Below, piece by piece: positions 24,001-27,000 of a stretch of 64,000 nt of DNA. The DNA lies in assembly GCF_053078305.1 (NCBI RefSeq), contig NZ_CP166879.1; one strand, written 5' to 3'. Position numbers: made by a program. How positions within the stretch are numbered: the first letter of the stretch is position 1; each line of letters begins with the position of its first letter.

Positions 24001-27000
24001 TCACTGTTGCCACTAGCAACACCGCTCACTTTTTAACCTCTGTTGCCACTGGCAACACCGCTCACTTTTTAATCTCTGTTGCCACTGGCAACACCGCTCA
24101 TTTTTTAATCTCTGTTGCCACTGGCAACACCGCTCACTTTTTAACCTCTGTTGCCACTGGCAACACCGCTCATTTTTTAATCACTGTTGCCACTGGCAGC
24201 ACTGTTCACTTTTTAACCTCTGCTGCCACTGGCAGCACTGTTCGCTTTTTAACCTCTGCTGCCACTGGCAGCACTGCTCATTTTTTAATCTCTGCTGCCA
24301 CTGGCAGCACTGTTCATTTTTTAATCTCTGTTGCCACTGGCAACATCGCTCACTTTTTAATCACTGTTGCCACTAGCAACACCGCTCACTTTTTAACCTC
24401 TGTTGCCACTGGCAACACTGCTCATTTTTTAATCTCTGTTGCCACTGGCAACATCGCTCACTTTTTAATCTCTGTTGCCACTAGCAACACCGCTCACTTT
24501 TTAACCTCTGTTGCCACTGGCAACACCGCTCACTTTTTAATCTCTGTTGCCACTGGCAACACCGCTCATTTTTTAATCTCTGTTGCCACTGGCAACACCG
24601 CTCACTTTTTAACCTCTGTTGCCACTGGCAACACCGCTCATTTTTTAATCACTGTTGCCACTGGCAGCACTGTTCACTTTTTAACCTCTGCTGCCACTGG
24701 CAGCACTGTTCGCTTTTTAACCTCTGCTGCCACTGGCAGCACTGCTCATTTTTTAATCTCTGCTGCCACTGGCAGCACTGTTCGTTTTTTAATCTCTGCT
24801 GCCACTGGCAGCACTGTTCGCTTTTTAACCTCTGCTGCCACTGGCAGCACTGTTCACTTTTTAACCTCTGCTGCCACTGGCAGCACTGTTCGCTTTTTAA
24901 CCTCTGCTGCCACTGGCAGCACTGCTCATTTTTTAATCTCTGCTGCCACTGGCAGCACTGTTCATTTTTTAATCTCTGTTGCCACTGGCAACATCGCTCA
25001 CTTTTTAATCACTGTTGCCACTAGCAACACCGCTCACTTTTTAACCTCTGTTGCCACTGGCAACACTGCTCATTTTTTAATCTCTGTTGCCACTGGCAAC
25101 ATCGCTCACTTTTTAATCTCTGTTGCCACTGGCAACACCGCTCATTTTTTAATCACTGTTGCCACTGGCAACATGGTTAATGATGACTACTACCTTAACG
25201 TTCAGAGACAAAAACAGCATTAATGTCGTTATCCCCATCACGAGCAACTGAATGTCGGTTATATCCAGATGAGACAATGACCAGAAAATCACAAAAAATG
25301 AAAAGCATTCTGCCAGCAGACTCAGGAGGAGCATAAATTGCAGGCCCCCTCCGACTGTACTGCCTGTACGCGCTTTATAAAGACTGTATGTGATCCACAG
25401 CCAGTTACTTAACACCAGGAAAAACCACCCTGTGGCACATACGATATAACACATACTGTTATCGTACTGTTCGTGCATTGTTTTCAGCGCAGTGAGCAGG
25501 GTCTCTGTGCCTGTCACCAGTCCCCAGATAACCACCACTCCGGCAATCACGCAGGCACAAATTTTAGCGATCAACAGGCCACTTTCTTTCATGGCTGCAC
25601 TCAGACTTTCCTGTTTGTATTTCTGCATGCTATTTACCACCTTGTTTCACCTGACCAGTTCCCGATTCTGTTTTCTTTTTAACCAGTCGCTGGCGGCACT
25701 GGTTGATTTTTATTCCCGCGAACATAGCCCGTATCGCAATCACTCAGGTCTCATCGCAGAACATCTGCGCAGCGAGGCCCGTAATCCAGCCACAATGCCA
25801 CTCAGACGTTCTGCTGAAATCGGTTCCGTACGTTTCCCCGATGAAACTGATTGCGCAGTAGCTCGCCCCCTTTCTCCTGCCAGTACGGAGGCTGGCACAA
25901 CAACACGTTGTTTCTGCTTCGGCGGATAAAAATTTCCCTCCCGGGCTCGCTTCAGCACTGCAAGCAACCAGCCCACAGGATTCTGCAGCGAGTGGCTGCC
26001 CAGCATCCCTGACAGACTTTCCAGAACCCCCTGCGCCAGTTCTTCCGGCAGCGCCTGCAACTGACTGGTCAGCATAATGGCCTCCTCCTCCCTGATTTGC
26101 CCTGTCAGCGCTTCAGGCAATACGTACGTGTTTTTAATCACACTGTGTGTGATATTACGTACGTAATGGTTCGGTTTCCGAACTCTGTGATAACCTTTTG
26201 ATTTTTCTGATGGTTCGGTTTCCGAACTCAGTATTTTTTGCCCCTGTTTTTCACTGAGTTCGGAATCCGAACTCAGCATTTTCAATACCGAACTCTGTGT
26301 TTCTACCCCCGGTTCGGTTTCCGAACCCGGCTGCATTCTGTCCTCAGTCACCAGCTGACGGGCCGCCATCTGTCCCGGTGTCTGGGCACTCCCTATCCGG
26401 GCTTCCAGTTGACTGATATGGCTGTGATAATGACGCATTCCCGGATCATTTTTTATTTCGCACAGAATATCCCGGGCCGTCTGACTTATGGTCCGGTTCC
26501 GGCTCATACAGGCATCTGCCACCATATCCAGATAACGTGGATCCAGTATTTCAGCATCCCGGCACGTCACCGGTTCATCGTGCTGGGCATAAATATTGCC
26601 CCGTACCCGCCCTTTCTCATCACGCACCCGTTTGCACAGACTCAGCCAGCCCGTGATCCGCAGCATCAGCAGCACCCGGCTGACAGTCTCCCTGGAGGCT
26701 TTTCCTTTCCCCGGGGAAGCCAACTGCAGTTGCAGTTCGTCATATGTGGGGAAAACTGCACCTTCATTATTCTGTGCATACAGCCGAATCATCATCCACG
26801 CCATCTTATCCAGCGGAGAAAGTCGCGTATCCAGAAGCAGTCGACGCGGAATGGCATCATGCACATTTCCGGTAAACAGCAGTCCGCTTTGTATTTTTCC
26901 GTCCTGTTGTCGGCCTTTTTGCACTATCCGCTCTTGCATTTTTTCCAGCGTGTACGCAATCAGGCTGTCTACGGGTAATGTCATTACACTTTTCCTTTTT

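Follow-up and report, generated by a model that had tools for sequence, protein, structure and literature searches.

A row of palindromes inside the coding sequence of a STY4528-family gene was analyzed, and comparison of homologous genes indicates that selection acts on the DNA of this row and not on the peptide that it encodes. The gene lies in a 64,000-nucleotide stretch of contig NZ_CP166879.1 (NCBI RefSeq assembly GCF_053078305.1), referred to here as the window, and its host, a mobile island of E. coli, belongs to the SPI-7/pKLC102/ICEclc-type integrative conjugative elements. We propose that positions 26120–26330, approximately 210 bp in the linker-coding part of the gene, are probably a cis-acting replication origin of this element, and that the surrounding gene encodes its initiator. 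The new findings are that the palindromes are under DNA-level selection in three reading frames of a coding sequence, are helically phased, and switch together with a residue of the protein; that the surrounding protein has an initiator-type fold; and that the in-gene sites are distinct from a tandem array downstream of the gene.

The in-gene palindromes and their conservation

With at most one mismatch allowed, GTTCGGNNNCCGAAC matched the 64-kb window at four places, all within the STY4528 gene; the chance expectation is 0.09, and none of 100 shuffles reached four. A sequence-only reading had described repeated GTTCGG palindromes in this rep-like gene, and we confirmed four perfect copies (A1 to A4) and one half-site (Table 1), with start-to-start spacings of 44, 45, and 54 bp, the half-site dividing the longest interval into 30 + 24. 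The four full sites span gene nucleotides 659–816, corresponding to residues 220–272, and A2 extends to a perfect 23-bp palindrome, CTGAGTTCGGAATCCGAACTCAG (26254–26276). The same reading took the repeats to encode SETEP-type peptides. Only three full copies and the half-site share one frame, however; the fourth full copy encodes VRKPN in another, a first hint that the DNA is what is kept. The half-site CCGAAC is also present in homologue L002. On the plus strand, antisense to the gene, A3 (26212–26238) and A2 (26254–26286) run into T-rich stretches in a terminator-like arrangement that could halt antisense transcription into the gene.

Homologues were drawn from E. coli, at 75–84% nucleotide identity, and from 80 loci of other Enterobacterales species, at 44–66% protein identity. 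There were 135 copies of perfect GTTCGG-N3-CCGAAC, and in most homologues their positions and their two frames matched those of the window gene; palindromes at shared positions span homologues of 44–82% protein identity, and the position and frame of A4 are constant across the 80 Enterobacterales homologues. The arms are unchanged and the spacer is free (AAA, ATT, ATA, AAT, GAT, TTT, AAG, CAA, ACG, and others), so that the encoded peptide changes (SETEL, SDSEL, SGSEL, SVSEL, SEAEP, SATEL, and others) while the arms stay constant. An alignment of homologues had been suggested earlier as the means of separating conservation of the palindrome from that of the peptide; its outcome is that the DNA palindrome is kept while the peptide varies, and not a conserved peptide repeat over freely varying DNA.

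Codon usage is consistent with this result. Synonymous-codon shuffles that preserved both protein and codon usage yielded 1.1 ± 1.0 palindromes in 80 genes, compared with 149 observed. In a codon alignment of 78 distinct genes, the fraction of the most frequent codon was 0.88 in residues 220–288 and 0.55 elsewhere (Mann–Whitney p = 2e-11). Codons in this segment are nearly fixed (Ser TCG 69/69, Glu GAA 70/70, Val GTA 78/78, Arg CGT 78/78), and conserved residues of the folded domains use 3.9 codons per column. The constraint spans a block of approximately 200 bp, 26120–26330, and extends beyond the palindromes themselves. The earlier suggestion that the stretch doubles as protein code and cis-acting site is thus upheld by both the shuffles and the near-invariant codons.

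The sites are confined to the gene: 152 were counted in 97 kb of STY4528-family genes and none in 587 kb of flanking DNA, with the exception of two frameshifted gene copies. In these, L075 4695–4812 (Pectobacterium sp. PL152) and L083 4643–4788 (Photorhabdus luminescens DSM 3368), the STY4528 frame is frameshifted or truncated and the palindromes persist downstream of the break, which fits either a translation-independent DNA function or recent decay.

More distant relatives extend the pattern to all three reading frames. In cluster representatives at 30–40% identity, the 15-mer leaves the peptide footprints FGxRT, S-x-x-E-L/P, and VRxPN, one for each frame, and the DNA of 14 of these representatives bears this out. 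The P. aeruginosa element pKLC102 carries GTTCGG-N3-CCGAAC four times, in frames 2, 1, 1, and 0 with spacings of 44, 54, and 44, and L087 has three copies, one per frame. Other elements have different arms: GTTCTC/GAGAAC (L092, four copies in three frames), GTCCGG/CCGGAC (L099, six copies in three frames), GTTTCC/GGAAAC (L091), GTTCCA/TGGAAC (L089 and ICEHin1056), GTTCGA/TCGAAC (L088), GTTAAG/CTTAAC (L098), and GTCCAA/TTGGAC (L097). The arm type is uniform among all copies of one element, the layout is kept, and the arm changes are compensated.

Spacings between successive sites are restricted to a few values. Distances of 33, 42, 44, 45, and 54 bp occurred in 22, 5, 46, 69, and 20 cases, respectively, and others (21, 53, 78, and 89 bp) once or twice each; frame-preserving distances such as 36, 39, 48, or 51 bp were not found among the homologue sites. 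Since the recurrent spacings are multiples of approximately 11 bp, the sites lie on one face of the duplex, and since a 44-bp step changes the reading frame, this phasing is kept at the frame's expense. Whole units are nonetheless gained and lost, as in natural E. coli variants with in-frame losses of 18, 33, 7, or 22 amino acids. Such turnover, in a disordered linker rich in Ser, Glu, and Thr, is what an ordinary low-complexity peptide repeat would display, the DNA likeness then being a trace of recent duplication. We give this explanation practically no chance: the 15-mer is kept in three frames that encode unrelated peptides, synonymous sites are frozen across genera, and the peptide varies at the spacer-encoded positions. 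Three-frame retention, spacer-driven peptide change, and the excess over synonymous shuffles together refute it.

Next to A4, the palindrome row gives way to a conserved AT-rich block. GC content is 35–38% at 26120–26240 and 60–65% in the gene on either side, and an AT-rich segment beside the repeats, recognizable here by composition and by its inverted repeat, is a property of the internal-origin class. The order after A4 is TACGTACGTA, TCACAC-N3-GTGTGA (palindrome B), an A tract, and ACGTACGTA, with bases nearly invariant in any codon phase. Of 82 homologues, 62 have palindrome B; its spacer varies freely, and its arms also occur in the compensated form TTACAC..GTGTAA. It is bracketed by TACGTACGT motifs, and its half-sites are those of the CRP box in opposite orientation. 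In 13/13 distant loci, the last site gives way to an AT-rich inverted repeat, even in genes of 60–65% GC; its arms differ (AGTAC/GTACT, TACGTA, GTAGTAG/CTACTAC) while its form persists. The most conserved element of the row is the half-site closest to the AT-rich block. Between A3 and A4 lies a motif resembling the integration host factor (IHF) consensus (Table 1); its bases are conserved in homologues, with invariant codons at K261 (AAA, 56/56) and S262 (TCA, 60/60). Inspection of the block by eye gave no convincing DnaA box.

The STY4528 protein and its possible reading of the sites

The 414-residue product scores 411.9 bits over residues 33–353 against NCBIfam NF040582 (STY4528 family pathogenicity island replication protein), well above the curated cut-off of 130 bits, set on the whole-protein hidden Markov model score, and is therefore a member of this family. 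An AlphaFold2 model (mean predicted local distance difference test score, pLDDT, 77.8) comprises a folded N-terminal domain (residues 1–216), a disordered stretch (219–285), and a helical C-terminal part (290–350). The N-terminal domain contains a winged helix, with helices at 57–72, 81–87, and 98–110 and a wing at 114–135, and its fold is closest to DnaB/DnaD primosome proteins, a RepA_N initiator, and RctB. Residues 219–285, with pLDDT below 50, form a linker rich in Ser, Glu, and Thr. This disordered stretch coincides with the part encoded by the constrained DNA, and the placement of the repeats in central, linker-coding DNA (sites at residues 220–272) is that of initiator genes with an internal origin.

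Profile searches gave weak resemblances to replication proteins. PHROG matches were "replication initiation protein" (E = 0.0013) and "O-like" (E = 0.06), both weak; among 47 family members, 9 weakly matched the RepC C-terminal region in Pfam (RP-C_C; best E = 2.5e-5) and 3 matched HTH_36. The RepA_N (PF06970) and Phage_rep_O profiles did not match, leaving a likeness in fold only, and the family profile gave chance-level matches to PDB sequences.

The protein and the sites change together. Arm class was assigned to 66 family representatives from the frame-0 peptide, and 302 alignment columns were ranked against it by shuffle-corrected mutual information. After two residues that the palindrome itself encodes, the top column was E99, in the first turn of the predicted recognition helix (98–110), followed by S56 and R54. 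CGR arms pair with E or D at residue 99 in 22 of 25 cases, CCN with K in 6 of 12, CAR with A in 12 of 17, and AAR with P in 4 of 4. E99 accompanies GTTCGG and D99 accompanies GTCCGG, a pairing seen in the distant L099 as well as in an Erwinia clade whose protein otherwise stays near that of E. coli (Fisher p = 0.0013). Because the arm variant covaries with residue 99 and the fold is a winged helix of initiator type, these comparisons suggest that the gene product reads the palindromes of its own gene, the covariation being the strongest available pointer.

A candidate origin and other roles for the sites

Elements of the SPI-7/pKLC102/ICEclc group are reported to replicate (PMC4489591). At the proposed origin, a STY4528 dimer would use its N-terminal winged-helix domain to occupy each of the four dyad-symmetric GTTCGG-N3-CCGAAC sites, along one helix face and possibly aided by an IHF-type bend. 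Opening of the AT-rich inverted repeat adjoining A4 would follow, with the island's own DnaB-type helicase recruited by the C-terminal domain; SSB and topoisomerase III are encoded nearby. Binding by the STY4528 protein, DNA opening, helicase loading, and origin activity are the parts of this scheme that we infer.

The covariation at residue 99 demonstrates a link between protein and site only, not replication, and would also be expected if the sites were operators at which the STY4528 protein or another regulator controls transcription, whether as an autoregulatory roadblock on its own operon, over the downstream PFL_4669/inrR-side genes, or by titration or handcuffing. In ICEclc, loss of orf96323, which occupies the STY4528 position, together with the next two genes lowers the output of a Pint reporter (PMC7423338), and A2 and A3 with their T runs on the plus strand resemble terminators. 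A scan in and beside the block, however, found no sigma-70-like promoter, and its two terminator-like matches were the palindromes themselves on the antisense strand; nor does any copy of the palindrome stand at a promoter within 4 kb in the 80 loci. Four phased sites with a conserved AT-rich inverted repeat behind them form an origin-like layout, and fold and neighboring genes indicate replication. On this balance we consider an operator function unlikely.

The compensated arm changes could also point to hairpins in single-stranded nucleic acid, acting as priming or helicase-loading signals on a transferred or displaced strand or as mRNA structures. A 231-nucleotide stretch folded as single-stranded DNA gave z = -7.9, and relaxase-driven replication of ICEclc yields single strands. 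Imperfect copies, however, contain A.C mismatches more often than G.T wobbles, which argues that base pairing is not specifically preserved, and a spacing in multiples of approximately 11 bp belongs to double-stranded DNA. One arm type per element, tracking a protein residue, is more than pairing by itself would demand, and an Rfam scan of 23500–27200 returned no match above threshold, the families listed below it being eukaryotic. We therefore regard hairpins as a very doubtful explanation of the row.

Several observations weigh against an origin with the STY4528 protein as its initiator. The fold similarity is to generic winged-helix proteins at moderate Z, and a Pfam scan of the window protein gave no match even at E ≤ 10, and no initiator family. 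The statistics for residue 99 take no account of shared ancestry. The pair count at A4 alone exceeds shuffles (0/500); a control offset by one column does just as well, so the count is given no weight, and in approximately one quarter of the Enterobacterales homologues (L014–L032 and L034, Xenorhabdus and relatives) A4 is reduced to its right half (xxxxxx-AAA-CCGAAC). The IHF-like AATCAAAAGGTTA is not above chance in the 64-kb window. The copy-number rise of ICEclc in transfer-competent cells needs the TraI relaxase and oriT1 (bioRxiv 10.1101/451864), so a theta-type origin is not required to explain that replication. Published "oriV" assignments in this group of elements are sequence-based, and the roles of the in-gene row and of the downstream array could be reversed.

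The host element, its downstream array, and known systems

A 1.5-kb query, 25600–27100 of the window, matches the chromosome of one E. coli strain at 99.5% identity, and homologues in 97 E. coli genomes carry the identical product name (STY4528 family) from the Prokaryotic Genome Annotation Pipeline. In the near-identical E. coli island, the module comprises ssb, STY4534, topoisomerase III (topB), PFL_4669, STY4528, and XF1762, together with DUF2857, DUF2786, a ParB-family gene, and the "SPI-7-type island replicative DNA helicase" (dnaB-PI). The family is also found on 35 circular records labeled as plasmids, including pKLC102 and pEB102, which may be excised elements or carry other replicons. 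A literature search for the name "STY4528" returned incidental annotation mentions only.

Table 1. Positions of the palindromes and associated features in the window
Feature	Position	Strand	Gene position or frame	Encoded peptide	Remarks
STY4528-family gene	25740–26984	minus			open reading frame, 414 aa
Palindrome A1, GTTCGG-TTT-CCGAAC	26312–26326		nt 659–673, frame 1	GSETEP	
Isolated half-site CCGAAC	26288–26293		nt 692	SSV	GTTCGG on gene strand; degenerate copy 33 bp past A1
Palindrome A2, core GTTCGG-AAT-CCGAAC	26258–26272			SSDSEL	
Palindrome A3, GTTCGG-TTT-CCGAAC	26213–26227		frame 1	SSETEP	
IHF-consensus-like motif AATCAAAAGGTTA (consensus WATCAANNNNTTR)	26191–26203	minus			between A3 and A4
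Palindrome A4, GTTCGG-TTT-CCGAAC	26169–26183		frame 0	VRKPN	copy adjoining AT-rich block
AT-rich conserved block	26120–26166				adjoins A4
TACGTACGTA	26156–26165				within AT-rich block
Palindrome B, TCACAC-TGT-GTGTGA	26138–26152				single occurrence in window
A5 tract					within AT-rich block
TACGTACGT	26121–26129				within AT-rich block
Downstream array, 35 copies of 36-bp unit	23910–25173				between STY4528 and PFL_4669-family genes

In the downstream array, 24 of the 35 units carry a perfect or near-perfect GTTGCC-ACT-GGCAAC. Its position presumably matches that of the pKLC102 "oriV" repeats, and in 2004 Klockgether reportedly gave the name oriV in pKLC102 to the tandem array and not to in-gene sites. 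Homologous arrays of 2–9 copies occur in other elements; the pKLC102 array repeats a 57-bp unit approximately 15 times. The array palindromes share the 6-3-6 geometry, but their inner bases differ between elements, with compensation; the recognition helix of STY4528 stays constant, as do the in-gene sites. Another factor probably reads the array, which may be a partition (centromere) or copy-control locus. The array also creates a spurious open reading frame of 453 amino acids on the plus strand. Between it and the STY4528 gene, and slightly overlapping the array end, lies a reading frame of 163 amino acids (25149–25640, minus strand) that appears hydrophobic by eye and is annotated as "hypothetical" in the near-identical E. 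coli island. The interval between STY4528 and PFL_4669 contains unrelated genes in L002 and none annotated in L003 to L005, so its cargo is variable.

The in-gene row could also serve partition: like sopC or parS, it might be a centromere or regulator target of the ParB-family protein (a BisD homologue with a DUF2857/BisC partner), and not of the STY4528 protein. The units of F sopC are 43 bp, which a cluster of inverted repeats approximately 44 bp apart resembles; P1 parS includes an IHF site; and a ParA gene and a ParB-family gene both lie within the STY4528 module. Even so, the arm variant tracks the recognition-helix residue of STY4528, and the tandem array, with its palindromes differing between elements, is a better candidate. 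In ICEclc, moreover, the protein with the ParB domain combines with the DUF2857 protein into BisDC, which activates transcription from several promoters (PMC7423338), and since the palindrome occurs at one place per element, such a role fits the motif poorly. A centromere in the in-gene row is accordingly improbable. The "ParB family protein" (29698–31434, minus strand) and the DUF2857 protein (28369–28983, minus strand) of the window match ICEclc BisD and BisC in family and order, so the ParB label in island annotations may mislead.

Descriptions of related elements contain both halves of this arrangement. The "putative oriV" of PFGI-1 (Mavrodi et al. 2009) has an A+T-rich half with four copies of CTGAGTTCGGAATCCGAACTCAGT and another half with 46-bp repeats, and the island was stated to encode no Rep protein (PMC2647930). 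The 23 bp of A2 (26254–26276) equal the first 23 of the 24 bases of CTGAGTTCGGAATCCGAACTCAGT, and the window has counterparts of both halves, the in-gene sites for the first and the downstream array for the second; a literature search for the palindrome motif gave that paper as its sole match. ICEHin1056 and relatives have iteron-like repeats in an AT-rich region (Juhas et al. 2007, PMC2258188). The passages on oriV in the PFGI-1, pKLC102, and ICEHin1056 reports are descriptive, and those passages do not mention coding location, three frames, phasing, or protein covariation.

A wider proposal, tentative and in our judgment somewhat short of an even chance, is that the in-gene row is the true vegetative origin of the pKLC102/PAPI-1/ICEclc/SPI-7/ICEHin1056 superfamily. 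STY4528 (ICEclc orf96323) would in that case be its unrecognized initiator, the residue-99 pairing (E-GTTCGG, D-GTCCGG, K-GTTCC, A-GTTCAG, P-GTTAAG) a specificity code for replication or incompatibility groups, and partition or copy control the separate task of the downstream array. This superfamily spreads virulence genes (SPI-7, PAPI-1), antibiotic resistance (ICEHin1056, PAGI types), and catabolic genes (ICEclc), and its replication after excision is unsettled, with oriV assigned from sequence, a Rep protein denied in one paper, and a relaxase implicated in ICEclc. If the proposal is correct, origin and initiator are pinned to one 1.2-kb gene, a small and testable replicon module; sequence alone might serve to assign elements to specificity groups, and the module would offer a target for curing or stabilizing them. 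The row also offers a clean natural case of a DNA motif that stays constant although a coding gene reads it in all three frames.

The proposed origin can be compared with several known systems. Classical iterons (pPS10, F, R6K) are tandem direct repeats of approximately 17–22 bp, usually outside rep, that bind Rep monomers and lack dyad symmetry, and the present sites do not belong to this class: perfect palindromes of 15–23 bp, 33–54 bp apart inside the gene, fit dimer binding, as in lambda O or the Rep boxes of RepA_N. In repABC plasmids, oriV lies within repC in an A+T-rich region, and no iterons were found in repC (PMC3155836). The internal A+T-rich oriV and the weak RepC C-terminal matches of 9 of the 47 STY4528-family members are points of likeness; the absence of iterons from repC and the lack of a RepC match in the window protein are points of difference. 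The rep gene of pSK41 has four Rep boxes at its center, encoding a linker that is dispensable (PMC5703833). Four sites in the central, linker-coding DNA of an initiator gene would be common to both systems. The window protein differs in having no Pfam RepA_N match, a Gram-negative host, an integrative conjugative element of approximately 100 kb, and its own DnaB-type helicase, and its sites are perfect 6-3-6 palindromes, 33–54 bp apart.

In lambdoid phages, iteron type and the O N-terminal domain change together, a parallel to the covariation of arms and residue 99 described here. The lambda origin, oriLambda, lies inside gene O, where a 38-bp AT-rich segment adjoins four iterons of 18 bp each (PMC3349717). 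Those iterons are closely packed, unlike the sites of the window, and the O-like PHROG match of the STY4528 protein is non-significant. Lambda also uses a P-type loader, whereas the partner here would be the island's DnaB-type helicase. Common to lambda and to the origin proposed here is the overall plan: an origin within the initiator gene, in which four dyad-symmetric sites are followed, along the direction of transcription, by an AT-rich segment.

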